Source: Thermomicrobiales bacterium
GTDB taxonomy: Bacteria > Chloroflexota > Chloroflexia > Thermomicrobiales > CFX8
NCBI GenBank assembly: GCA_023954495.1
Contig: JAMLIA010000006.1
Coordinates: 4,097 to 68,096 of the forward strand
DNA: 64,000 nt
Direction: 5' to 3'
Shown: positions 11,302 through 33,266 of the stretch, piece by piece
How the letters are laid out: the number at the start of each line of letters is the position of its first letter
Numbering within the stretch: the first letter of the stretch is position 1
Notes under the pieces: generated by a model
What the model was told of the DNA's origin: nothing
The model's database searches: none
The model's input: the letters and a program-made list of their open reading frames with translations, nothing else
Program-made: the position numbers and the translations under genes

Positions 11302-11649
11302 CTATGCCGCCATCGCGACGGTCATTGCGGCCAGCGACAGGACTGCAACGAGGCTGAGCGTGGCGATTGTCCCAACTCGCTTGCCAAGGCGCTTGCGGAA
11401 AACCGGAGTCAGTCCGAGCGACAAAATAGCGAGTAGACCAAGGATCGGGTGAATGATCGTAATGCGGTCGGCGTCCTCAGAAATGAGGATGATTCCCAGA
11501 ATGACCTGGATGCCAAGCAGTCCGTGAGCGAGCCCGGTGAGCGCTGGTGGCACTGGCCGATCGCGTCGCCCAATGAACAGCATCGCGATGATGACGAAGA
11601 TGTAAATGATAAACAGGCTCTCGCCAAGATACCGGTGAATACTCTCCAT
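11302..11649 (-). CDS. Small hypothetical membrane protein (3-4 predicted TM helices)
   Basis: 115-aa hydrophobic ORF lying divergent to polX. No recognisable catalytic motif. Confidence 0.55.
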   Translation of the reverse strand: MESIHRYLGESLFIIYIFVIIAMLFIGRRDRPVPPALTGLAHGLLGIQVILGIILISEDADRITIIHPILGLLAILSLGLTPVFRKRLGKRVGTIATLSLVAVLSLAAMTVAMAA

Positions 11650-19939: not shown

Positions 19940-22078
19940 TTACACGTGTCGCGCGGTTCGCTTGTTGGCGACGTAATCGACGAGGATGTACTCGCCGAGG
20001 CGGTCCGGCGTGGCAAAGAACGCGCGACCCTTATTAATCTTCGCCATCTCGGAAACGAACCCGGCCATGTACGGGCTATGCTCCAGCATGAACGTATTGA
20101 TGGTCACATTCTCGCGGGTGCAGCGCATGACCTCCTTGAGCGTCTCCTGCAATGTCTGGTACGTCGGCGGGTAGGAGAACCGCACCTGGCCGTCCTCGAA
20201 GTGCGCTGTCGGTTCACCATCGGTGATGACGATTACCTGTTTATTGCCGCCCTTGTGGCGGGCGAGAAGCTGCCGAGCCATCATCAGGCCGTGCTGCATG
20301 TTCGTGCCGTAGTTGTATTCGTCCCAACTGATGCTCGGCAGGGTCGCCGGATCGAGCCGCGTCGCCACGTAGGAGAACCCGAGGACGTAGAGATTGTCGC
20401 GCGGGAACTGTCCGCGGATCAGGCTGTCGAGCGCTAGCGCGACTTTCTTGGCCGCGGCGAAGCAGCCGTTGTAGAGCATTGATCGGCTCATGTCGACCAT
20501 CAGCACGGTTGATGACTGCGTGATCTGTTCGGTGCGATAGACCTCGAAGTCCTCGGCCGCCAGATGCACTGGCGCACCAGTGCCGTCCCGCCAGACCGCG
20601 TTCATCACCGTCTTCGGCAGATCGAGCAAGAACGGGTCGCCGAACTCATACGGTTTGCTCGTGTCGGTTCGCTCGCCACCCTGGCCTGTGTGGTCGATCT
20701 GGTGCTGGCCGAAGCGATCGCGCTTGAGATGCTGGAAGATATCGGTCAGCGCCTTCTGGCCGATCTTCCGCACACCCTGGGCGGTCATCTCCCAGCCACG
20801 ACGGCCCTTCTTGATGTAGCCTGCATCTTCCAGCAACTGCGTCAGTTGGCGAAGCTGGTCGAGATCATGTTGAAACTCGTCGCCCAGCAACTCGCGGATC
20901 TTCTGATCGTCAACGTCCTCGAGGTCACGCCAGTCGCGGACGCCACGCAGCTGCTCGGACATCTCGTCCATGTCGTGCAGGCGATCCATCAGACGCAGTG
21001 CCTGGTCGAGCGACAAATCCTCATCGCCACGGAACCGATATTGATCGGCGTACGGATTCGGTCCCATCATCTGCGACAGATTCTCGGAGAGCCGCTCCAT
21101 CTGCTGCTGCATGCCGGGGTCGTTCATGACCGCCTGCATGGCATTCCATAGCTCGGCGCGCTGTTCTTGCGACATTGAGTTCATCAGCGACTGCATCGCC
21201 GCCATCTGCTGCGCCATGTGATCCATCAGCTCGTCGAGCGACTTGATGTCGTTGCCGAAGTAGTGCCCCCAGCGGTGCATGAAGCGCTCGAAATCCGGCT
21301 GTCCACCGTTGGCGCGTTCTTCGAGCATGTCGTTCAGCTCAGAGAGCATCTGCTGCATCTCCTGCATCGACTCCGGCGTCATGTTCTGCAGCGACTGCTG
21401 CATCCCCTGGAAGGTCTGCTGCAGCATCTGCTGCTGGAGCTGCTCCAACAACTCCTGGAACTTCTCGCGGGCACGCTGATCCATGAACTCGTATTCGGTC
21501 AGCGCCTTGATCTGTCCGGCCGGATCGGGCGGGAGATTGTCGAGCGCGTCCAGCTTCTTCTGCGCCATGCTTTCCAGCAAGCGCTGCAGCCGCTCGTTGT
21601 CGTCAGCATCGCCTGTCTCAGACTTGTCCTGCTCACCAGTGGATTGCTGCGACTGCTCGCCCGTTTCGCTTGCCTTGTCTTTGCCGTCGGACGACTCGGT
21701 GCTGTTTTCGGGCTGCTGCGTCTGCTGACGACTCTGGTCGAGGCGCTGCTCGATTCCGTCGCGCTCAAGCTGCTGGATCTCTTCGAGGCGCTGCTTCAGA
21801 TCGTCCAGTACCGAGCCGAGGTCGTAGCGATTGAGCTCGCGCTGCCGCATAGCTTTCAGTCGCTCCATCAGCTGGCGGATGCCGGGCATCTGCGTCGAGT
21901 CCTGCTTGTTGAGCCCCTGATTGAACAGCCGCTGCAGAGCACTCTGCAGGTCGCCCTGCGCGAACATATCATCAGATATGGCGTCCATGATGTCGTCAGC
22001 GGTCAGGCCGTCGATCTGCTGCGTGCCGTCCCAGCGAGAGTAGCGGTTGCGCGGGTAGAAGGAGTAGTCGAAGCTCAT
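19940..22078 (-). CDS. VWA-domain protein with a long Q/E/M-rich coiled-coil region (CoxE/NorD-like partner of an AAA+ ATPase)
   Basis: 712-aa ORF. The C-terminal VWA domain has the MIDAS motif VDMSRSM and ..VIVITDGEPTAH. The central ~230 aa are low-complexity (QQMLQQTFQGMQQSLQNMTPESMQEMQQML). Confidence 0.85.
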   Translation of the reverse strand: MSFDYSFYPRNRYSRWDGTQQIDGLTADDIMDAISDDMFAQGDLQSALQRLFNQGLNKQDSTQMPGIRQLMERLKAMRQRELNRYDLGSVLDDLKQRLEEIQQLERDGIEQRLDQSRQQTQQPENSTESSDGKDKASETGEQSQQSTGEQDKSETGDADDNERLQRLLESMAQKKLDALDNLPPDPAGQIKALTEYEFMDQRAREKFQELLEQLQQQMLQQTFQGMQQSLQNMTPESMQEMQQMLSELNDMLEERANGGQPDFERFMHRWGHYFGNDIKSLDELMDHMAQQMAAMQSLMNSMSQEQRAELWNAMQAVMNDPGMQQQMERLSENLSQMMGPNPYADQYRFRGDEDLSLDQALRLMDRLHDMDEMSEQLRGVRDWRDLEDVDDQKIRELLGDEFQHDLDQLRQLTQLLEDAGYIKKGRRGWEMTAQGVRKIGQKALTDIFQHLKRDRFGQHQIDHTGQGGERTDTSKPYEFGDPFLLDLPKTVMNAVWRDGTGAPVHLAAEDFEVYRTEQITQSSTVLMVDMSRSMLYNGCFAAAKKVALALDSLIRGQFPRDNLYVLGFSYVATRLDPATLPSISWDEYNYGTNMQHGLMMARQLLARHKGGNKQVIVITDGEPTAHFEDGQVRFSYPPTYQTLQETLKEVMRCTRENVTINTFMLEHSPYMAGFVSEMAKINKGRAFFATPDRLGEYILVDYVANKRTARHV

Positions 22079-22290
22079 CTGGCGCTCGATTCAGGTAGGT
22101 GATGTAACGGACGGGGACGTTGCTATCTACGGGTGCGGATGCTCGTGTGAGGTTGTGACGTTGTCGTCAATGTCCGGCGCAGATTCGATGTGTCAAGGAT
22201 AAGCCGATGTTCGCGCAGTCGCAATGTCGTGGCCAACGATGCCGTGCGGCTCTGCTCCTCCCGAATCGTGCATCTGGGGGGATGCTTCGT

Positions 22291-22320
22291 TTGACTCGTC
22301 TGCAATTCGACAGGCATAGT
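22291..22320 (+). promoter_or_regulatory. Sigma-70-like promoter candidate for the lipoprotein gene
   Basis: TTGACT (22291..22296), an 18-nt spacer, then CATAGT (22315..22320). A T8 tract follows, and the ATG is at 22376. Confidence 0.25.
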
Positions 22321-22375
22321 TTGCGGTCAGCGCGCACCAACTTGATTTTTTTTGCTCTGGTGCTACCGTCACTTC

Positions 22376-22978
22376 ATGACAAGAGAAGCCCGAAAGCTGA
22401 TTCAATCCATCGTTGTCGTCACGGTCGGGGCGGCACTCTTCGCAACGAGTGCCTGCAACACTGATTCCACGCACGATAGTGCTTCGTCTCCGATATCCAG
22501 CGCAGCGGCAAGCCTCGTGTTGCCAACGCCAATCCAGGACGGAGTCTGGAATGCTCTGACGGTCGAGCAGGCTCGTGCGCTCGCGTCGTTCCCGCTCGCG
22601 ATCCCCGATCCCATGCCTGACTCGCTGCAGCTGACCAACATCGTCGTCATGACGTCGCCGCCGTCCGGCGCGCTGGGTAAGACAAATTACGCCGAAGTGC
22701 ACATTATGAGTACAAGCGGAACTTCAAAGATCGTGCTCACGGAGACGACGCGCGAGACTCAGCTGAACGTGGGTGACTCAGTGACGCGCAGGACGCTCGA
22801 CATCAACGGTACGTCTGTCGACAAGGTTGATGACCCGCGAGGCGATGGTAAGACGACGCTGAGCTATTCGTGGAACAGCAATGGAGTCTGGTATTCAGTC
22901 GTTGCCTTGATGCCTTCGGCGGATGTGACCGAGACGCAACTGGAGCAACTGATCACGAATCTCAACATTGCGGAGTGA
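22376..22978 (+). CDS. Putative secreted lipoprotein (hypothetical)
   Basis: The N-terminus MTREARKLIQSIVVVTVGAALFATSAC has a signal peptide and a lipobox-like TSAC. The remainder is a beta-rich soluble domain. Confidence 0.6.
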   Translation: MTREARKLIQSIVVVTVGAALFATSACNTDSTHDSASSPISSAAASLVLPTPIQDGVWNALTVEQARALASFPLAIPDPMPDSLQLTNIVVMTSPPSGALGKTNYAEVHIMSTSGTSKIVLTETTRETQLNVGDSVTRRTLDINGTSVDKVDDPRGDGKTTLSYSWNSNGVWYSVVALMPSADVTETQLEQLITNLNIAE

Positions 22979-23070
22979 TCTCGTCCGCGGGTAGGAGCGG
23001 GTTGATCAGAGAGCCGAATCGCAGCGAGATATACCTCGCTGCGGTTCGGTGTCGATTGGCCTATCGTAGC

Positions 23071-26000
23071 TCAGAGCGCGCGTGACCACCGGAGCAGCAA
23101 CGCTGCGTCGTTGGCTGGCATCATTCCGAGCATGGCCGAGAAGGAGACCGCGACCTGGAAGCGGACCATCATCGTGAATGCCACCTGCTCCTGGCCGCGC
23201 CGCGCCGCATTCTCGGCGGCCGCGAGCATGCTGCACAGGGAGTTGGCTTCGCGCGCGCTCGTGAGGATCTCCCTCGACAGCCCGCACAGGTCGGCGTGTG
23301 TTGCCACAACGCGGAAGGTGGCTTGTGTGCTGGATGAGTTACCGGCCTGATCGAGTGCGGTCGCGGTGATGCTCTGGTCTCCAGCCGAGAGCGAGCTCGC
23401 CTTGCGGTTCAGGTCTGCGCACGTATCAGACGCTACACCGGAGGTTGCATCGCTGACCGAGCAGGATATGACGATCGTGTCGAGCAGCCCATACGTCCCC
23501 TGGTTGCCGGTAAAGACGACCTCCGGCGCGGTCGCATCACGCTTGACGCTGACCGACTTGGTTGAGCTACCACCGGCGCTCACCGCCGTGCAGGTCAACG
23601 TTCTTTCCGCCGTGTCCTCAGTAACAACTGTCTGGTCGCAGCCGGTCATCGACGTGATGCCCGACTCGTCGTCGGTCACCGTCCAGGTGATCGTGACATC
23701 GCTGGTGTACCAGCCGTCGTTGCCGAGCGTGCCATCGAGCGTCGCCTCGACTGACGGTGCAGTGGCGTCGTTGACGGTGTACGTAAAGTCCGCCGTCGCG
23801 CTGTTGCCCGCGATATCGGTCGCCGTACAGGTGATCATGTGCTCGCCGAGCGACGCTGTGTCAACCGATGGGCAATTCTGCGACGCGACACCGGACAGCG
23901 TGTCCGTTGCATTCGATGTTGCAGTCGCCTCGCTGTTGAACAGGATGACTGTTGGGTCAATGGTCGGGCTGAGCGTCGGAGCCGTTGCATCACGCTTGAC
24001 GGTCACGGATTCAGTCGTGCTGCCACCGTCACTGGCTGCCGTACAGGTGAAGGTCGTCTCGGCAGTATCAGTGTTGATGACCGTCTGATCGCACCCAGTC
24101 ATGACGGTGATGCCTGAGTCGTCGTCAGTGACTGTCCAGGTGATGGTGACATCGCTCGTGTACCAGTCGTCATTGCCGAGCGTACCAGTGACATTCGCGA
24201 CAACCACTGGCGGCGATGGATCGTGGACCAGGTAGGTGATGTCTGCTGTCGCGGAGTTGCCGGCGGCATCTGTCGCGGTGCAGGTGATGGAGTGCTCGCC
24301 GACTGACGATGTATCCACGATCGGGCAATGTTGCGATGCAACGCCCGACAGCGCGTCGTCTGCATTTGGCGTCGCTGACGCCTCACTATTGAGCATGATG
24401 TCCGTCGGCTCGATGGTCGGACTGAGAGCCGGTGCCGTTGCATCACGCTTGAAGGTCACGGACCCGGTCGTGCTGCCGCCGGCGCTCACGGCTGTGCAGG
24501 TGATTGTCGTCCCGGCAGTGTCTTCAGCAACGACTACCCGATCACAGCCAGTCATCGACGTAATCCCGGAGTCCTCATCTGCGACCGTCCATGTGACCGT
24601 GACATCACTGGTATACCAGCCATCGTTGCCGATCGTGCCAGCGACCGTTGCTTCGACCGTCGGCGCTGTGTTGTCGATGACGGTGTAGGTGATTGACGCG
24701 CTCGCGGAGTTGCCAGCGACGTCGGTTGCTGTGCAAGTGATGGTGTGCTCACCGACCGATGACGTGTCAATCGTCGGGCAGCTCTGCGAAGCAATACCGG
24801 ACGCAGCATCGCTGGCGTTTGGTGTCGCGGTCGCCTCGCTGTTGAGGAGAATGACGTCAGGCGCAATCGTTGGATTGAGCGATGGTGCCGTTGCATCTCG
24901 TTTGATCGTGAGCACCTGTGTGGTGACGCCACCACTGCTCGTGACCTGGCAGGTGGAGGAGACGCCATCGGGTCCGACCGAGTCGGTAGTCACGTCAAAG
25001 ACATCGCAGCCCACGACGGACGTGATCGGAGATTCGTTGTCTGAATACCACCACTCGAACGTGACGTTGCTGGTGTACCAGCCGTTGCGGCCTTGCGTGC
25101 CGAAGACCACTGGATGGACGATCGGTGGCGTGCTGTCGACCACGACCAATGTGCCATCGACCCAACTGATCTCGTAGTTTTGGGAGGTCAGACCCTGGCA
25201 GGTGATGGTGTAAACACCGCGTGGTGGGACGGGACTGAGCGCAACTGCGTTTCCGGCCTTGTCCTGCAGCACGCAGCTCAGAGTGCCGTTCAGATTGTTG
25301 ACATCCTCACCGCTGGCGAAGCCATCGTAGGTGACAGCTGCGATGTCCGGCAGGGATGCGGCGTTGTCAGGCACATCGTAAGACGGTGCGGTGATCGTCA
25401 GGTGTTGCGCTAGTACCTCAAGTTGAACTGAGACTGGATCCGGAACCCAGGTGTTGCCAACGTTCGGTGTGAACTGCACAGTCAGTGTGTGCGTTCCAAC
25501 CGGAAGGATCTGGCTTGCGTCGTACGCATCACCGTCAACAGTGACTGCGAATGTGCCACTAACAGGTTGGCCGGCAGCGTCTGTTGCTGTGTAGCTTAGT
25601 GGCACGTCCCCTAGAGCCGTGCCATAGGTGATCGGATCTGGGGCGGGCCAGGAGACAGTGACACCATTCAGGATGACGTATGTCGCCACTAATGACGTCG
25701 CGCCAGCAGCGTCAGATACCGTCACGTTAACTTGGTAGTGGCCGATGGCCGCATATCTGTGCTGGGACCAGATCTTGTAGGTCCCGACACTACCGGCGAC
25801 GGGGATGAGGTCGATGTCATCGACGCCAAGCTCGATCATCATCGGGGATTCCGCCACGGAGAGAGCCGGCGAGCCGTCGCCCCAATCAACCGTAAGACGA
25901 ACTTCATCTTCGGCAAATGGCGCGACCGTCAAACCAGTCACTTCCATCGCTTGTTGCGGCACACCAGATCGAACGTCACAGACCACTTCCGGGGTGCAGG

Positions 26001-28128
26001 TCGTAGCACCAACAAAGACAGACAGATCCAGCGTCGGTTTTTCGACGGATTCGATCATGACGTTGAATTCGGATGACGTCACGAGGCCAAGGGAGTCCGT
26101 GGCGGTGAGACGCACTCCCCAGATACCTGGCTTCGCGAACGACTGCTGAATCGAAGCGCCATTAATCGGATCGCCGAACGGGTTGCAGGCCACGATGCCG
26201 CCGCAGCCAACGATCACGGTCGATGGCTCCTTGAACTGCCAGCTATAGGTGACATCCAGCCCGAGCGGTGAAACACCATGCGCATTGAACGTCATTGGCG
26301 AGTTCAATATCCGCGCACCGCTATATGTTGGCGCAACATGCGGCCCGCCACCGGAGTCGACAACTGATGCCGAATATTGCTCTCCATCGTCACCAACGTA
26401 GTTGATCGACTCAGAGATGGAGCAGGTGCCGTCGTCGATACACGTGCTCGGGTTGATCTCAGGGTCGGACTCTTCGCGCTGCTTTGCTTGAACGAACTGG
26501 TAGGTGCCTTCATCATCCTGCACCAGCCAGGCGAAGCGATTCACATCGTCCCAATCGGTGTAGAAGAGCCGCAATGACGGGCTAGCGGACGGCGGGAAGT
26601 CAATGGCGCGGAGCTCGTTGATGAACCAGTGCCCATGGATTCGCGTGGTTTCGGCGGCCTCCGCTGATGGCAACTGATGTGAAATCGTCTGCGAGTAGAA
26701 GGACTCGCCCGTTTCAGCCTTCGTGACCGAGAAGAGCGGATCTGTTTGGCTGTAAGCGGGAATCTCCGTTGCATTCAGGCACGGCGCAACCGTTGGGCCG
26801 TACTCGGCGTTGTCGCACGTATCAAATCGTGGAGCTGGCAGTGCAGCAACCAGGAACATCGCGAACAGCCCGCCGACCTTGTCCGGATCGTTCACGATCG
26901 ATGCCAGGTCAGGCGTTGTCGACTGCGCAGTCTGAATGTTGTCAGCGAGCCTGACTGGCAGTTCTCCTTCGACGGAGAAGTTGATGATGGCGATGACGGT
27001 GATGATGATGGTCGCAATAATGAATGCGACTGCCAGCCCAGCTGCTACGGCAGTTGACGCGCCACCTGCGATTGCCAGATCGGCCTTGACCGCTTCTGAT
27101 GCGGCTTTCGCCGTCATACCGGAGGCCATGTAGGCCGAGTAGGCCGCTTGAGCCGAAGCCAGGGTGAAGTCTCCGACGTAGCCAGCGAATGGCGCAACGG
27201 CTTCCCAGATCGCTGTCGAACTCGCGAATGCCGAGGCAACGGTGGAGGAAGTTGCTATCCCGTAGCCGATGGCGGCAGCTGCGACACTGCCAGCACTGAA
27301 TGCGATGGCATTCGCCGTACCTCGTGAAATGCGAGCCAGATCTGGCGAGTCGAGGATCTGGTTTTCCCGAGCAAAGCCCCATTTGACGAACTGATCGTAC
27401 TCAGGCGGCATTTGCTGGCAGCCAGTTGGAGACGTGCAGGGCGTGTAGCAGGTCTGCGTCTGGTAGCCGATGTACTCTTCTTCGTATGGCGACGGCGATC
27501 GATAGTCACAGTATCCAATTGGATTCTCGTACACATCGCTCGCAAGAAAATTGACGAGTGCGCCGTGGTCAGCGCCGGTTGCGATCAGGTTGTTGTAGGC
27601 CTCCAGATTGAGCCCTTTCCAGCTCACATATTCGCGGCCAGCACCGATTGCTGCCTCCACATCCTGACGATGCTGAGCTGTCGTGAGCCAATCCACCACG
27701 TTCTGCTGATCTGTGGTGCGGCTCTCAGCCGGCGTCTTGATCGCTACGACAACGAGGCCCCACAGCTCGGCCAGCGCGTCTTCGCGCGCCCAGCTGAGGA
27801 CGGCGTCGCCGTCGTCTGGGTCGAGGCCGTGGACTGCGATGACGGACGCGATTGCCGCGTTCTCCATCGCCCGGATTGACTCGGCCTGTTCAGGAGTGGC
27901 CTCATATTTCCCGAACGTCAGCGTCCCCTCGTTGATCAGTGGGGGTGGTGCGTAAACCGCTGCCGATGCCGGCTCGGCAAAGCGGTACACATACGACATC
28001 ATCATGGCGACGATGAGCAGATAGACGAGTGACCGCGACCAGAGCGGTCTCGTCCTGGATGACCTGCGCCGCCCATTGCGTCGCGTTAACCCTGATGAGC
28101 GCTCCCTCACCTTACGCGCCGTTCTCAT
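23071..28128 (-). CDS. Giant (1685 aa) cell-surface protein: N-terminal signal/anchor, an unknown Cys-rich domain, an internal hydrophobic hairpin, PKD-like and MBG-like domains, four ~151-aa Ig-like tandem repeats, and a helical C-terminal tail
   Basis: Single uninterrupted ORF. The N-terminus has an R-rich stretch followed by LVYLLIVAMMMSYVY..ASAA. PKD-like motifs are present (TVDWGDGSP...HRYAAIGHYQVNVTVSD). The repeats have the consensus D.TAP.V...V.GT.GNDGWYTSDVT.TWTV.D..SGITSMTGCD...KRDATAP.LSPTI. Confidence 0.9.
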   Translation of the reverse strand: MRTARKVRERSSGLTRRNGRRRSSRTRPLWSRSLVYLLIVAMMMSYVYRFAEPASAAVYAPPPLINEGTLTFGKYEATPEQAESIRAMENAAIASVIAVHGLDPDDGDAVLSWAREDALAELWGLVVVAIKTPAESRTTDQQNVVDWLTTAQHRQDVEAAIGAGREYVSWKGLNLEAYNNLIATGADHGALVNFLASDVYENPIGYCDYRSPSPYEEEYIGYQTQTCYTPCTSPTGCQQMPPEYDQFVKWGFARENQILDSPDLARISRGTANAIAFSAGSVAAAAIGYGIATSSTVASAFASSTAIWEAVAPFAGYVGDFTLASAQAAYSAYMASGMTAKAASEAVKADLAIAGGASTAVAAGLAVAFIIATIIITVIAIINFSVEGELPVRLADNIQTAQSTTPDLASIVNDPDKVGGLFAMFLVAALPAPRFDTCDNAEYGPTVAPCLNATEIPAYSQTDPLFSVTKAETGESFYSQTISHQLPSAEAAETTRIHGHWFINELRAIDFPPSASPSLRLFYTDWDDVNRFAWLVQDDEGTYQFVQAKQREESDPEINPSTCIDDGTCSISESINYVGDDGEQYSASVVDSGGGPHVAPTYSGARILNSPMTFNAHGVSPLGLDVTYSWQFKEPSTVIVGCGGIVACNPFGDPINGASIQQSFAKPGIWGVRLTATDSLGLVTSSEFNVMIESVEKPTLDLSVFVGATTCTPEVVCDVRSGVPQQAMEVTGLTVAPFAEDEVRLTVDWGDGSPALSVAESPMMIELGVDDIDLIPVAGSVGTYKIWSQHRYAAIGHYQVNVTVSDAAGATSLVATYVILNGVTVSWPAPDPITYGTALGDVPLSYTATDAAGQPVSGTFAVTVDGDAYDASQILPVGTHTLTVQFTPNVGNTWVPDPVSVQLEVLAQHLTITAPSYDVPDNAASLPDIAAVTYDGFASGEDVNNLNGTLSCVLQDKAGNAVALSPVPPRGVYTITCQGLTSQNYEISWVDGTLVVVDSTPPIVHPVVFGTQGRNGWYTSNVTFEWWYSDNESPITSVVGCDVFDVTTDSVGPDGVSSTCQVTSSGGVTTQVLTIKRDATAPSLNPTIAPDVILLNSEATATPNASDAASGIASQSCPTIDTSSVGEHTITCTATDVAGNSASASITYTVIDNTAPTVEATVAGTIGNDGWYTSDVTVTWTVADEDSGITSMTGCDRVVVAEDTAGTTITCTAVSAGGSTTGSVTFKRDATAPALSPTIEPTDIMLNSEASATPNADDALSGVASQHCPIVDTSSVGEHSITCTATDAAGNSATADITYLVHDPSPPVVVANVTGTLGNDDWYTSDVTITWTVTDDDSGITVMTGCDQTVINTDTAETTFTCTAASDGGSTTESVTVKRDATAPTLSPTIDPTVILFNSEATATSNATDTLSGVASQNCPSVDTASLGEHMITCTATDIAGNSATADFTYTVNDATAPSVEATLDGTLGNDGWYTSDVTITWTVTDDESGITSMTGCDQTVVTEDTAERTLTCTAVSAGGSSTKSVSVKRDATAPEVVFTGNQGTYGLLDTIVISCSVSDATSGVASDTCADLNRKASSLSAGDQSITATALDQAGNSSSTQATFRVVATHADLCGLSREILTSAREANSLCSMLAAAENAARRGQEQVAFTMMVRFQVAVSFSAMLGMMPANDAALLLRWSRAL
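23305..25140 (-). repeat. Four in-frame tandem repeats with a ~453-nt period (150-154 aa each) inside the giant surface-protein gene
   Basis: The landmark string gtgacatc(g/a)ct(g/c)gt(g/a)taccag recurs at 23693, 24146 and 24599, with a diverged copy at 25061. This gives periods of 453, 453 and 462 nt. The antisense shadow ORFs 23366..24088, 24236..24688 and 24689..25177 mirror the repeat. Confidence 0.85.
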
Positions 28129-28568
28129 GTGTACCCTGTCCTCGCAGTTTCTTCATCGTGTCGCTCACTTCCTGGTGATGAACATCTGCTACTCACGCGA
28201 CGTGAGGTCGTGCCCCCTGACGATGTGGATGAACGAACCTGGCAAGTGCGCCGAGAGATCGAGACGTCTGGTCAACCCGCAGGAACGGGCGGAGTGATTG
28301 GAAACATCGGAGTCTGCGCGCACGTCGTTGCCCTTCTCGTCACACAATTGCCAGATGCAAATCCGGTCGCCTGGAGCGGCCGGTCAACGGACACTGCGTG
28401 CGCCAATCTGTCCGGCCACTCCAGGGACTGCATTCAGCGTAGTGAGTGAGGCTGGGGTTGACTTCCGTGCAAGCCGCCAATCTGCGACATATGACATGGC
28501 GGTTTGCACCTATGCCGGAGTGGCGGTTACAGGTATCGACTTGCGAATGGGTGCGTTGAGGAAGTGGC

Positions 28569-31500
28569 TCAGGAGTTGAAGAAGTTGTGGCGGTGCGCCA
28601 GCGCGATGGCCTCAGCCCGGCTGGACACGTCGATCTTTGTGTAGATGTTGGCGGAGTGTCGTTCAACTGTGCGCACACTCATCGAGAGCTCGTGCGCAAT
28701 GTCCTTGTTGCTGCGACCGGCAGCGATCAGTCGCAAGACATCGAGTTCGCGAGGGCTCAGTCCATATTGCGGCGCGGAGTCCGTGTGCAGCGGCAACTGC
28801 GTCTCCGCTGCGTCCACTCGCGCCAACACGGTCTCCGCGCGAATTGGCTCACAGATCCTGCGGACTTCCTGAAGCGCGATTCGGGCTAGCTCAAATTGCC
28901 CAGTCGCTAAGTACAGATCGGCGTAGACCTGCATTGAAACCGCCCGCTCGTACGGCAATGCGCAGGCGGTTGACAGTGAAAGCGACTGATCGAGATGATG
29001 GGCGGCAGCGGCAGCATTTCCTGTGATGATCTCCAGCCGTCCGACTGCGCGGTGGGCCATCGAGAGCAGTAGCGGTTGACGTGGCTCGCTGGCCAGATCG
29101 AGCGCAGTTCGCGCGTGATGCATGGCGGACTCGTTGTCGCCGGTCAGGGAGCAGAATCGCGTCCACAACAAGTGCCCTTCTGCCCGCCCGATCACTGCGC
29201 CGCTCCACTCAACCCAGCGGCCGTGCGCCACGATCCATTCATGAGCTGTCGGCAGGTCTCCCGCATCCATCGCCAGCCCGGCCGCCAATTCCTGAATCAT
29301 GAGCACATCAATGAACCCCTGGTTGCCGGGTTCGGTGGCCGCGCCGGTGGGGAGCAATTCGTGAATGAACTCCCACGCCTCTGCGACCTTGCCCTGATCT
29401 CGCTTCAGCTGAGCCAGCACCGTGCCCAACTTGATATGCCACCATGACACATTTGTTTCTTCGGAGCCGTACGCCTCTTCTGCCGCCTGAATGTCCGACC
29501 AGCGACATTCGAGAAGCGCGAGGTATGAAATTGACGCGACGAGCGGCAGGTTAACCTCTGTCGAAAACGTGCCGACAACCTGTTGGTACATGGCGGCGAT
29601 GTGCTGCGCGAGGAAGCCACGCTCTCTTACCTGCTCGGTGCGATATGGCAAGAGCACGAGCTCAAGCTCTTGCGAGTAGACATCGCCGATCAGCATCCGA
29701 TGGTCAATGGCCTGATACATCGCTCGTGCGGACGCGAACGCTCGGTCTGCGTCGTCCGGTCGACCGACGAGTGCGTACGCGATGCCAAGGCCGTTGTACA
29801 GATCCGCCCAACCGCTGCCGGTGTTGCCACCAAGGTCAGGCGTCAGGCGCGCTCGCTCTGGATCGGGAGGCCAGATCGTCGCTAATGCTTCGCCGATGGT
29901 GAGCGCTTCCTCGATATATCCCAACCAGGCCAGATTGGTGACGACAGTCCCCCATGTGAGGCATATTGGATGATCAGGCTGGTCTGACAACAATCGCGCT
30001 GCCCGACAGTGCAACGCGACTGACTCCTGCGCCTCGGCAATACCTAGCGGTGGAACACCGCACGCATCGAACGCCCCTGCGCGGAGCGCAGCGTCTGTTT
30101 CTCGGCAGGCTGCCTCAGCTTCACGGATGCCCCGTCGCATGTCTCCAAGGAGGAATTGCAGGTAGCCGGAATAGAACGACGCCAGGGCCCTCAATAGCGG
30201 ATCGTCCAGACGCATGGCTGCCGGGAGTACGTCCTGAATCGCCGCGAGGCCGCGCTGAGGATCATCGAAGCGGCGCATGATGCCAGACCAGAACTGGAGC
30301 CAGCTGTATTCGCGCGTGCGATCAACCTCGTGGCGGAGCCAATTCGCGGCAGCGTCGAAATGATCGGCTGCCTCAACCCAGGCGTGTGACCAATGCGCGC
30401 GTCGCCCCGCCTCGATGAGCCATTCGACTGCACGCGGATCGTTGGCCTCCTGATAGTGTTGTGCCACCAGATCGGGCAACGCAGGACGCGATGACGCATA
30501 CGCCTCGGCAATCTTCTGATGCCACAACCGTCGTCGCGGACCGTGCAGGGACTCTACGAGCGCATCGCGAATCAACGCATGATGGAATCGGAGTTGGTCT
30601 GTCGTTTCGCCTTCGTCAAGGATGCGAGCTTCGAGTGCCTCGTCGCAGATATCGAGCAGCGTGGCATCGTCGAATCCGCAAATCGCTGCCCACAGGTCGA
30701 GCGAAACGTTCTCCCCGAGCATGGCTGCGACCTGCAACGCTGAGCGCGCTTCAGGCGTCAGCCGTTGCAAACGGACATCGATCACTTCGCGCAGGCGGTT
30801 GGGAATGCGGAGATGCGCGACATCTGTCAGCACCCAGCGCTCCATGTTACGGGTCAGCGTGCCGCTTTCCTCAAACGAGCGCAGCAACTCGTTGGCAAAG
30901 AGCGCGTTGCCCTGGGTTAGATCAACAAGCATGTCGGCCAACTTCTCGACATCCGGATCTGCAAGGCAATAGCGCGCCTTTACCAGGTCGGCGAGACCAG
31001 ACCGATCAATGGGCTGGAGGGTGAGTCGTTCTGCGTGCGTATCGCGCACGAGATGCGGTAACTGCTGCGCGAGGGGATAGCGCGAGGTGAGCGCATCGTC
31101 GCGATACGAACCAACAATGAGCAGTGGGATTGTCACGGACCGCCGACCGACGAAACGCAGCAGGTCGATGCTCGATTGATCGGACCAATGCAGGTCTTCC
31201 AGTATGAGGCAGATGGGTCGCTGTTTGCTCGCTGCTTCGACAAACACACAGAAGGATTCGAACAGTGCCAGTTGGCTTGGTGCGGCGGCGGCTTGTCCAT
31301 CCGCCCACAACTGGCCAGGCGGAGCGGGAGGTGGATCGCCAACCGGTGGATGCCTCGCTATATGCATTTCCCAGGCGCGAGCAATGCCAATCCAGGGAGA
31401 ATATGGTCGGGATATTTCCTGATCGGAACAGTTGCCGATCAATACGGTGACGTCCTGTGCGGATGCAATGTGGGTCAAATCCTCAAGCAGGGCCGTTTTG

Positions 31501-31655
31501 CCGACACCAGCTTCACCACGGAGCAACACGAGTCCGCCGGTACCAGCGATCGCTTGCGACAAGTGCGCCTTCAGGAGCGTCCGCTCATTGTCTCGGCCAA
31601 CAAGAATTGTGGAGAGCCTCTGATGGGCTTCATATGCATCGCCGCGGTCGTCCAT
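28569..31655 (-). CDS. LAL-type regulator: N-terminal AAA/STAND ATPase, a TPR-like helical middle region, and a C-terminal LuxR HTH
   Basis: 1028-aa ORF with Walker A (GEAGVGKTAL) and Walker B-like (CLILEDLHWSD) motifs. The C-terminal LuxR/GerE HTH reads LSPRELDVLRLIAAGRSNKDIAHELSMSVRTVERHSANIYTKI. Confidence 0.9.
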   Translation of the reverse strand: MDDRGDAYEAHQRLSTILVGRDNERTLLKAHLSQAIAGTGGLVLLRGEAGVGKTALLEDLTHIASAQDVTVLIGNCSDQEISRPYSPWIGIARAWEMHIARHPPVGDPPPAPPGQLWADGQAAAAPSQLALFESFCVFVEAASKQRPICLILEDLHWSDQSSIDLLRFVGRRSVTIPLLIVGSYRDDALTSRYPLAQQLPHLVRDTHAERLTLQPIDRSGLADLVKARYCLADPDVEKLADMLVDLTQGNALFANELLRSFEESGTLTRNMERWVLTDVAHLRIPNRLREVIDVRLQRLTPEARSALQVAAMLGENVSLDLWAAICGFDDATLLDICDEALEARILDEGETTDQLRFHHALIRDALVESLHGPRRRLWHQKIAEAYASSRPALPDLVAQHYQEANDPRAVEWLIEAGRRAHWSHAWVEAADHFDAAANWLRHEVDRTREYSWLQFWSGIMRRFDDPQRGLAAIQDVLPAAMRLDDPLLRALASFYSGYLQFLLGDMRRGIREAEAACRETDAALRAGAFDACGVPPLGIAEAQESVALHCRAARLLSDQPDHPICLTWGTVVTNLAWLGYIEEALTIGEALATIWPPDPERARLTPDLGGNTGSGWADLYNGLGIAYALVGRPDDADRAFASARAMYQAIDHRMLIGDVYSQELELVLLPYRTEQVRERGFLAQHIAAMYQQVVGTFSTEVNLPLVASISYLALLECRWSDIQAAEEAYGSEETNVSWWHIKLGTVLAQLKRDQGKVAEAWEFIHELLPTGAATEPGNQGFIDVLMIQELAAGLAMDAGDLPTAHEWIVAHGRWVEWSGAVIGRAEGHLLWTRFCSLTGDNESAMHHARTALDLASEPRQPLLLSMAHRAVGRLEIITGNAAAAAHHLDQSLSLSTACALPYERAVSMQVYADLYLATGQFELARIALQEVRRICEPIRAETVLARVDAAETQLPLHTDSAPQYGLSPRELDVLRLIAAGRSNKDIAHELSMSVRTVERHSANIYTKIDVSSRAEAIALAHRHNFFNS

Positions 31656-31859
31656 TGAGGCGTCGCCCGTCGGTCAAAGTGGCTGCGTCTGCTCATAGTG
31701 GTCGCTCGTTCGCAGTATAGCAGCCGGTGTTGTTGGCAGCGAATAATTTGCGCAAGTGAGATGCTGTGTGTTGATTGCAGGCGAAGAACAGCGCGGTTGT
31801 CATGCAGCAAAGCACGACGACCGCGCTACTCAGAAGATCGCGCGTTGTTGTGAGATTGT

Positions 31860-33266
31860 CTAGGCCTTGTATTGCGCCCCAGCCCCAGCAGCTCGATCCT
31901 TGTTGAGCCGCCGGTTCAGGTGCAGGCCCTCCAGCACGAACTCGACGCCAGACGCGACGCCAGCCGGGCTACCGGGCAGGTCCAGCTTCTCCAGCGCCTC
32001 GCGGACGCCATCGATATGCGAGACCTGATGGACGTAGTTCATCGCCGGGAGATCGTCGGCGGCATCGACGGTCAGGCCATTGTCGAAGCCGAGGACGAGA
32101 TCGTCGAACTCACGGACGGAGAAGTAGCGGTTGAACGTAGCGATGATCGCACCCTGAATCAGCTTCTCAACGATGCGATCCTCGCGAACCTCGCCCATCG
32201 TTTCCAGCTCGATCTTGCCGGTGGTCGAGGCGATGACCGCTCGCAGATCGGAGATGCGCGGCACGGCCTGCTTCTCGTTCAGCCGGATCGTCCGCTTGAG
32301 CGCGCTGGCAACGACGTTCTCATAATTAGCGATCGACATGCGCACTGAGACACCGGAGCGCTGGCTGATGTCGTGGCTGCGACGGGCCAGGTGCGTGATC
32401 TCGGCGATGATCTCGCGCATGAACTGCGGGACGTACAGATCGACACCGTCGGTCGGCGCGGGCAGCGACTCCTGCGCCATGATGTCCATCTCCAGCTCGA
32501 TCGTCTCCGGGTAGTGTGTGCGAATCTGCGAGCCGTAGCGGTCCTTCAGCGGCGTGATGATGCGACCGCGGTTGGTGTAGTCCTCCGGGTTGGCGCTGGC
32601 GACGACGTAGACATCTAGCGGCAATCGCACGCGGTAGCCACGGATCTGGACATCGCGCTCCTCCATGATATTGAGCAGGCCGACCTGGATACGCTCGGCG
32701 AGGTCCGGCAACTCATTCATGGCGAAGATGCCGCGGTTGGTTCGGGGAATCATGCCGTAGTGGATTGTCAATTCGTCGGAGAGGTAGCGGCCTTCGGCTA
32801 CCTTGATCGGATCGACTTCACCGATCAGGTCAGCGATGGTCGTATCGGGCGTTGCCAGCTTCTCAGCATAGCGCCGCTCACGACCGATCCACTCGATCGG
32901 GGTGTCGTCGCCCTTTTCTGCAATCAGGTCGATGGCGTAGCGGCTGATTGGATTGAACGGATCGTCATTGATTTCGCTGCCGGCGACGATTGGTACGAAT
33001 TCGTCGAGCAGGTTCACGAGGCTACGGGCCATACGTGTTTTGGCCTGTCCACGCTCACCGAGGAAGATGATGTCCTGACCGGAGAGAATCGCATTCTCGA
33101 TCTGCGGCAGCACGGTCTCTTCATAGCCGACGACACCGTCAAAGAGCGGCTGATCGGAACGAAGGCGGGCGATCAGGTTCCTGCGCATCTCTTCGCGAAC
33201 TGGTAGGACGGTGTAGCCGCTGGCGCGCAGTTCGCCTAATGTTTGAGCCTGGTGCTGATCCGACAT
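31860..33266 (-). CDS. ChlI/MoxR-like AAA+ ATPase (magnesium-chelatase subunit I family); presumed partner of the VWA protein
   Basis: Walker A reads FLGERGQAKTRMA, Walker B-like reads GIFAMNELPDL, followed by LLNIMEERDVQIRGY. ATG 33266 (MSDQHQ..) lies behind a GAAAGG RBS; ATG 33314 is an alternative start. Confidence 0.85.
   Translation of the reverse strand: MSDQHQAQTLGELRASGYTVLPVREEMRRNLIARLRSDQPLFDGVVGYEETVLPQIENAILSGQDIIFLGERGQAKTRMARSLVNLLDEFVPIVAGSEINDDPFNPISRYAIDLIAEKGDDTPIEWIGRERRYAEKLATPDTTIADLIGEVDPIKVAEGRYLSDELTIHYGMIPRTNRGIFAMNELPDLAERIQVGLLNIMEERDVQIRGYRVRLPLDVYVVASANPEDYTNRGRIITPLKDRYGSQIRTHYPETIELEMDIMAQESLPAPTDGVDLYVPQFMREIIAEITHLARRSHDISQRSGVSVRMSIANYENVVASALKRTIRLNEKQAVPRISDLRAVIASTTGKIELETMGEVREDRIVEKLIQGAIIATFNRYFSVREFDDLVLGFDNGLTVDAADDLPAMNYVHQVSHIDGVREALEKLDLPGSPAGVASGVEFVLEGLHLNRRLNKDRAAGAGAQYKA

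Follow-up and report, generated by a model that had tools for sequence, protein, structure and literature searches.

Why should two genes that lie side by side at most loci in a phylum be separated by almost 10 kb in one genome? This question is raised by a 64,000-nucleotide stretch of contig JAMLIA010000006.1 from a Thermomicrobiales metagenome-assembled genome (MAG; GenBank GCA_023954495.1), hereafter the window, from whose first nucleotide all coordinates are counted unless another contig is named. In the window ~9.8 kb lies between the gene for a ChlI-like AAA+ ATPase and that for a protein with a von Willebrand factor A (VWA) domain and a metal ion-dependent adhesion site (MIDAS). We consider it quite probable that the intervening DNA is an accessory islet, that it sits in a spacer prone to insertion in a single family of the order, and that it carries a self-regulated surface-protein cassette; the locus would then be an instance of ordinary genome plasticity rather than of a new functional system.

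The region had been singled out in a reading of its sequence only, whose gene map and coordinates we reproduced exactly from six-frame open reading frames (ORFs) and their translations: five genes, including the pair itself. In what follows, G labels denote genomes of our synteny set within the order (41 Thermomicrobiales genomes, this one and 40 relatives) and L labels further loci, metagenome contigs among them. The nearest genome of that set, G001, belongs to the same genus (97% and 94% amino acid identity and ~88% nucleotide identity in the pair genes), as do G002 and G003. The features, in order along the window, are:

19940-22078, minus strand: VWA/MIDAS protein of 712 amino acids (Pfam VWA_2), the downstream partner of the ATPase, apparently Rv0959-type.
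22079-22351: divergent intergenic region between the VWA and lipoprotein-like genes, homologous in G001 and absent in G002 and G003, where the alignment ends at the VWA start codon.
22352-22978, plus strand: lipoprotein-like secreted protein of 208 amino acids, the older insert.
23014-23049: strong hairpin between the convergent lipoprotein-like and giant genes, from folding of 22976-23075.
23071-28128, minus strand: giant, probable surface protein of 1685 amino acids with PKD, MBG, Big and HYR domains.
28129-28568: gap of 440 nucleotides between the LAL and giant genes.
28569-31655, minus strand: LAL-type (LuxR/MalT-like) STAND regulator of 1028 amino acids with AAA_16, TPR and GerE domains.
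31656-31789: region upstream of the LAL gene, the right end of the 8.8 kb insert; homology to G001 does not return before the ATPase hairpin and stop codon.
31790-31827, minus strand: hairpin just past the ATPase stop codon, the right junction, orthologous in G001.
31860-33266 (alternative end 33314), minus strand: ChlI-like AAA+ ATPase of 468 amino acids from its ATG, the upstream partner, apparently Rv0958-type.

What is the usual arrangement of the two outer genes? Both are present in 39 of the 41 genomes of the order, and a scan of a species-representative collection with the ATPase gave 80 homolog loci at 67-81% identity in Thermomicrobiales, Sphaerobacter relatives, Ktedonobacteria and other Chloroflexota. 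Adjacency could be evaluated at 75 of the Chloroflexota loci, and at all of these except about nine, where either the gap is enlarged or the available sequence contains no VWA gene, the VWA gene directly follows the ATPase gene. Measured from stop to start, the true spacers are for the most part 2-40 bp long and often contain an AGGA ribosome-binding site, the signature of a co-transcribed pair. Of the 21 genomes sampled from other families of the order, 19 have the two genes next to each other (spacer 42-235 bp), and in the remaining two, G026 and G030, they are on separate contigs. In the family of the source genome, of which all 20 genomes in our set were inspected, the pair is adjacent (a gap of <200 bp in tblastn coordinates) in 8 of the ~16 that could be evaluated, and nothing lies between the two genes in G002 and G003. 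Synteny thus bears out the expectation of the sequence-only reading that ATPase and VWA genes of this kind are normally adjacent partners: the two families co-occur, and the relatives lack the two large genes, LAL and giant, found between them here.

As for the identity of the pair, the ATPase has the Walker A motif GERGQAKT and the Walker B-like motif FAMNELPDL of an AAA+ P-loop protein, its Pfam matches (AAA_5, Sigma54_activat and Mg_chelatase) are all weak, its closest solved structure is the magnesium chelatase subunit ChlI (8osf, E 1.7e-10), and source annotations call it "magnesium chelatase" or "sigma 54-interacting". Its identity is 58-97% across the order and 67-81% in other Chloroflexota. 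The VWA protein has a readable MIDAS motif of the form DMSRS..T..D (DMSRS, GTNMQ, TDGEPT), and its VWA_2 match at residues 524-622 scores 26.5 bits, slightly below the 27-bit cut-off. In our local scan VWA_2 was the only family found on the window's own protein, and its 712-amino acid homologs in L135, L136 and L138 carry the precomputed Pfam assignments Mb0984_helical and Rv0959_3rd. Because of these two families on such close homologs, the pair appears to be of the mycobacterial Rv0958/Rv0959 type, and it is likely that it represents an ancestral two-gene operon conserved across Chloroflexota. A protein-cluster look-up returned no name for either protein, and the papers on Rv0958 and Rv0959 that we consulted give no function for the pair.

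Two further observations concern these genes. Most genomes of the family have a second, shorter VWA paralog elsewhere (G002:C235, G003:C5:265337, G004:C139, G009:C3 and G011:C7, among others), with 31-41% identity over the C-terminal half and open frames of ~390-650 amino acids; the source genome shows a single VWA copy only. Also, in some assemblies of few contigs the ATPase gene is spread over several frames or contains stops (G003:C5:1243755-1245203, G006:C23:401189-402618, G019:C2:433248-434616 and G013:C5:181-1545), which are probably long-read indel errors. In G013 the copy has decayed heavily, with 59% identity and several stops, and the search for the main VWA gene in that genome found none.

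Where, then, does the additional DNA begin and end? Alignment with G001 sets 22966-31863 of the window against only 50 bp, homology stopping at the stop codons of the lipoprotein-like and ATPase genes, up to which the flanks are syntenic with those of the relatives. The hairpin past the ATPase gene (stems AGCGCGGU and ACCGCGCU; -34.8 kcal/mol, z -3.5) is present in both the window and G001, and because it is orthologous in the two, the segment unique to the window is ~22979-31790, or 8.8 kb. The idea that the insert had split the terminator hairpin of G001 was dropped, since folding shows the hairpin intact by the ATPase gene and the insert beside it.

These boundaries divide what the sequence-only reading had treated as one block of ~9.7 kb, only ~8.8 kb of which is unique. 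An ortholog of the lipoprotein-like gene is present at the same site in G001 (60% amino acid identity) and in L135, L136 and L138, which are metagenome contigs with an ATPase 97-98% identical at the protein level and ~80-86% nucleotide identity over the region; it is absent from the site in G002 and G003. The lipoprotein-like gene is all that lies between the pair in L136 and L138, and L135 has in addition a 246-amino acid SurA_N-like gene and a remnant of 131-190 nucleotides from a second lipoprotein allele. The LAL and giant genes are absent from G001, L135, L136 and L138, none of which has any remnant of a cassette, and in the G001-like sequences the ATPase hairpin directly abuts the lipoprotein stop codon. 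Since the lipoprotein-like gene is common to the nearest relatives and the LAL and giant genes are unique here, the block has at least two layers, of which the lipoprotein-like gene is the older.

The older layer has its own peculiarities. The lipoprotein-like protein, which has no Pfam match, diverges much faster than its neighbors (60% amino acid identity to G001 vs 94-97% for the flanking pair), and its paralogs elsewhere, one of them on contig C66 of this genome, are only 23-34% identical. In L135 the remnant (11446-11593 of that contig) is the 3' end of a divergent lipoprotein gene, located between the ATPase hairpin and the newly inserted SurA_N-like gene and upstream of the complete lipoprotein gene, and it is the trace that an earlier allele left at this junction. 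On the VWA side, a VWA gene split from the ATPase gene would need a promoter of its own, which the divergent region at 22079-22351 may now supply. The hairpin at 23014-23049 is a probable bidirectional terminator (folding of the plus strand of 22976-23075 gave -48.7 kcal/mol, z -4.6).

Is this a singular accident, or is the spacer a place where genes accumulate? In other genomes of the same family it holds at least seven other, unrelated cargoes, for a total of at least eight distinct cargo sets. Spacers with other contents in the family and in further Thermomicrobiales MAGs include:

G007: 7.9 kb with a GntR-FCD regulator, a gamma-glutamyltranspeptidase (GGT), an RraA-like protein, two peptide ABC permeases and a binding protein.
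G004: a small ORF and a PIN-domain protein (PIN toxin pair), and more.
G009 and G014: a 228-amino acid protein with no Pfam match.
G017: a LemA gene.
G018: a 596-amino acid NHL-repeat protein.
L073 and L078 (other Thermomicrobiales MAGs): ORFs of 250-300 amino acids, whose hydrophobic N-terminal segments suggest small membrane proteins.

Because different cargo is found at the same spacer across genomes of the family, the spacer between the ATPase and VWA genes is a recurrent insertion point for accessory genes in one family. In other Thermomicrobiales and Chloroflexota (L086, L102, L071, L072, L074 and L130) spacers of 100-265 bp are occupied by long palindromes, perfect or nearly so, such as repeats of CGCAGAGG that face their complements; these look like small hairpin-forming repeat elements.

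What does the unique 8.8 kb encode? The giant protein consists, in order, of an Arg-rich N-terminus, a hydrophobic anchor (residues 33-51), a module of ~590 amino acids (the N-module), PKD and MBG domains, repeats and a helical tail. Pfam and NCBIfam matches are to PKD, MBG_2, Big_13, HYR and OmpL47-type repeats, with four copies of an OmpL47/HYR-type repeat of ~151 amino acids (453-nucleotide period). The N-module (residues 47-640; 26209-27990) has a helical domain, a Cys-rich loop, hydrophobic segments at 274-292 and 351-390, and a beta domain. It matches no Pfam family, and in a Foldseek search of the PDB its predicted structure (mean predicted local distance difference test score 65) had no match below E 0.1. 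It does, however, define a family of its own, as a search of 1.84 billion proteins returned 452 cluster representatives, 164 of them at E <1e-30. The C-terminal repeats have paralogs elsewhere in the genome at 35-46% identity vs an N-module that is unique in the genome; two weak homologs excepted, the giant protein is absent from the 40 relatives of the order. No LPXTG, S-layer homology or type IX secretion system (T9SS) sorting signal was found in it. On this architecture it is most likely a membrane-anchored, Ig-repeat-rich surface protein, either an adhesin or an envelope protein.

The protein encoded upstream of it has the architecture of the LAL family (AAA_16, E 1.4e-24; TPR_12; C-terminal GerE, E 4.5e-18; Walker A GEAGVGKT). 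Its best identity to any other family member is 41%, with a paralog on contig C75 of this genome at 36-39% depending on the program. The LAL/STAND family is greatly expanded in the order (G005, G006, G011, G018 and G019, among others), with up to 26 matches per genome at E <1e-20 and six in this genome, and it was not found in the five genomes of the order's family f3.

Do regulator and giant belong together? A STAND-type regulator lies within 4 kb of the gene for an N-module protein in 7 of 12 loci. The order is identical in G017:C22 (an AAA_16/TPR/GerE regulator, a gap of ~580 nucleotides, and the N-module protein), a GerE fragment is upstream of the N-module gene on the same strand in L046, and divergent helix-turn-helix (HTH)-NB-ARC or AAA_16-TPR proteins lie by the N-module genes in L047, L050, L052 and L141. 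LAL-type matches number ~20 in the 4 Mb of G017, roughly one per 200 kb, and because the recurrence of STAND and N-module genes together is far above chance at that density, the proposal in the sequence-only reading that the LAL and giant genes form a self-regulated surface-protein cassette is supported, although their working relationship is our reading of gene neighborhoods. The 440-nucleotide gap may supply the giant gene with its promoter, operator and 5' leader; it has no Rfam match, and it shares no k-mer of ≥9 and no operator motif with the region upstream of the LAL gene. Upstream of N-module genes we also noted a SnoaL-like gene, directly adjacent in the unrelated metagenome contigs L052 (5913-6506) and L141 (961-1488), in whose place L140 has an SRPBCC (Polyketide_cyc2) gene. 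The idea of a defense system, either Avs-like STAND or a MoxR-VWA conflict system, was set aside: PADLOC gave HTH-level or marginal matches only, and the pair belongs to the conserved core of the phylum rather than occurring sporadically.

Could all four genes nevertheless be one functional unit, in which the MoxR/ChlI-like ATPase and the VWA protein mature or assemble the giant protein? This was entertained in the sequence-only reading, and it has some appeal because the four genes are on the same strand and MoxR-class AAA+/VWA pairs are known as client-specific maturation factors, an example being NorQ/NorD (PMC9976466). However, it is contradicted by synteny: in every other genome examined, dozens of them, the conserved pair lacks this cargo, the N-module proteins elsewhere are not beside such a pair, and the same spacer has unrelated cargo in other genomes. 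In addition, the convergent lipoprotein-like gene and two strong hairpins split the supposed unit into separate transcripts. We regard such a unit as very improbable, and in the accessory-islet reading that we prefer, the cargo would have no functional tie to the ATPase-VWA pair.

How might the insert have arrived? As the sequence-only reading had stated, no integrase, transposase or tRNA marks the block. Pfam and NCBIfam scans detected no mobility domain (integrase or transposase) in any ORF of the block, a tRNA scan of the whole window found none, an Rfam scan gave no match, and the direct repeats that the reading had suggested looking for at the block borders did not appear, neither direct nor inverted repeats exceeding chance. 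The hallmarks of a genomic island or integrative element, namely an integrase or recombinase, attachment repeats and a tRNA target, are thus absent. Integrase-free hotspots of transfer between core genes have been described, and double recombination in the flanking core genes was proposed as their mechanism (Oliveira et al., 2017, PMC5635113). By analogy, the profile of the insert (no integrase, tRNA or repeats, mild composition) fits such hotspots, and entry was most likely through illegitimate recombination or through recombination in the conserved genes on either side. The second route would accord with the allele remnant in L135, which does not prove it.

Several points weigh against the view that the window gained an accessory cassette at an insertion-prone spacer. 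The shift in composition that had been anticipated is present but mild: the GC content of the insert is 60.0% vs 63.0% for the genome, among windows of equal size it ranks at the 96th percentile for tetranucleotide distance, and the GC content at third codon positions (GC3) is 0.67-0.70 in the cargo vs 0.79-0.82 in the flanking pair, although the cargo values are within the range of the genome (long ORFs, 15th-26th percentile). No donor could be named: the LAL regulator reaches 41% identity at best, and the N-module 44-45%. Neighboring junctions vary as well. The one between the DAO and ATPase genes, conserved in no wider group than the family, is longer than usual in G007 and G017; it is therefore a weak control, and "hotspot" must be read as a relative term. 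The sole indication that the LAL regulator controls the giant gene is their order. The genomes compared are kin and hence not independent samples. Finally, the direction of the last step may be questioned, a gain here and a loss in the sister lineage being equally parsimonious.

That last point leads to a different history, in which the whole 9.8 kb entered once, in a common ancestor with the G001-like lineage, and that lineage later deleted the 8.8 kb with the LAL and giant genes, so that the window would preserve the older state. With the site empty in G002 and G003, two events are needed under either history, the composition of the cassette is within the genome's own range, and the paralogs of the giant's repeats in this genome would fit long residence. 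Nevertheless, we judge it rather unlikely, as G001, L135, L136 and L138 are all without the cassette or any remnant of it, the hairpin cleanly abuts the lipoprotein stop codon in the G001-like sequences, and the GC3 of the cassette is below that of the flanks.

Was the insert created by the assembly instead, through a chimeric join? The source MAG has 152 contigs and an estimated contamination of 2.7%, which also counts against our interpretation, and the tetranucleotide distance of the insert might be viewed in the same light. If we assume a chimera, however, then two misjoins would have been needed, both of which restored synteny exactly at gene ends; moreover, several independent assemblies have real inserts at this spot, and the giant's repeat domains have paralogs in this very genome. 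We consider an artefact extremely improbable. It is also decidedly unlikely, in our estimation, that there is a dedicated landing site past the ATPase hairpin that operates free of recombinase, repeats and tRNA or, as a separate matter, that N-module giants and STAND regulators constitute an undescribed signal-gated surface system.

We therefore return to the accessory islet in two layers. In one family of Thermomicrobiales the short spacer between the ATPase and VWA genes would have become a site where accessory genes accumulate and turn over. A first layer, the fast-evolving lipoprotein-like gene, would be the older and common to the sister lineage; a second, the 8.8 kb cassette at ~22979-31790, would then have entered between the lipoprotein stop codon and the ATPase terminator hairpin. 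Within the cassette it is probable that the LAL regulator, which has a P-loop, a TPR sensor and a LuxR HTH, switches on the giant gene from a promoter in the 440-nucleotide gap upstream of it.

The locus provides a clean and well-bounded case of accessory genes that have built up inside a pair that elsewhere in the phylum forms a tight operon, and it indicates that co-transcription of the ATPase and VWA genes can be dispensed with. Current understanding is unchanged by this finding. The variable spacer could be mined for strain-specific genes in Thermomicrobiales, and two components of the locus may deserve study in their own right: the uncharacterized Rv0958/Rv0959-type pair, which is 67-81% identical across Chloroflexota classes and is also found in mycobacteria, and the N-module, with its ~590 amino acids, 452 representatives and frequent position by STAND regulators.

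How does the locus compare with systems already known? With the AAA+/VWA modules (BchI/BchD, NorQ/NorD, CbbQ/CbbO, RavA/ViaA and CoxD/CoxE) it shares a P-loop AAA+ gene that in the relatives is directly upstream of a gene for a protein with a C-terminal VWA/MIDAS domain, the co-occurrence of the two genes, and ChlI as the nearest solved structure. It differs in that no curated family model is matched with confidence, all Pfam and NCBIfam scores being weak, in that the closest named relatives are the uncharacterized mycobacterial Rv0958/Rv0959, and in that the genes are 9.8 kb apart here. The regulator resembles other LAL proteins in its length of ~1000 amino acids, its P-loop AAA_16, TPR and GerE/LuxR HTH regions, and its location directly upstream of a likely target; unlike theirs, that putative target is a single surface-protein gene and not a sugar regulon or biosynthetic cluster, and the regulator belongs to a paralog family for which a genome of the order can have as many as 26 matches. 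Like other Ig-repeat surface proteins and adhesins (PKD, HYR, Big, OmpL47, MBG), the giant protein has tandem Ig-like/beta-barrel repeats, an N-terminal secretion signal or anchor, and paralogs in the genome, whereas its ~590-amino acid N-module has no Pfam or solved-fold match and it lacks an LPXTG, S-layer or T9SS signal. The closest parallel for the site itself is with the integrase-free hotspots (PMC5635113). The interval here is inside what is elsewhere a tight two-gene operon, and our comparison is between genera of one family rather than between strains of one species, but the conserved gene borders, the varied accessory genes and the lack of integrase, transposase and tRNA are the same, and the L135 junction retains a remnant of a divergent allele, as would be expected from turnover driven by recombination.

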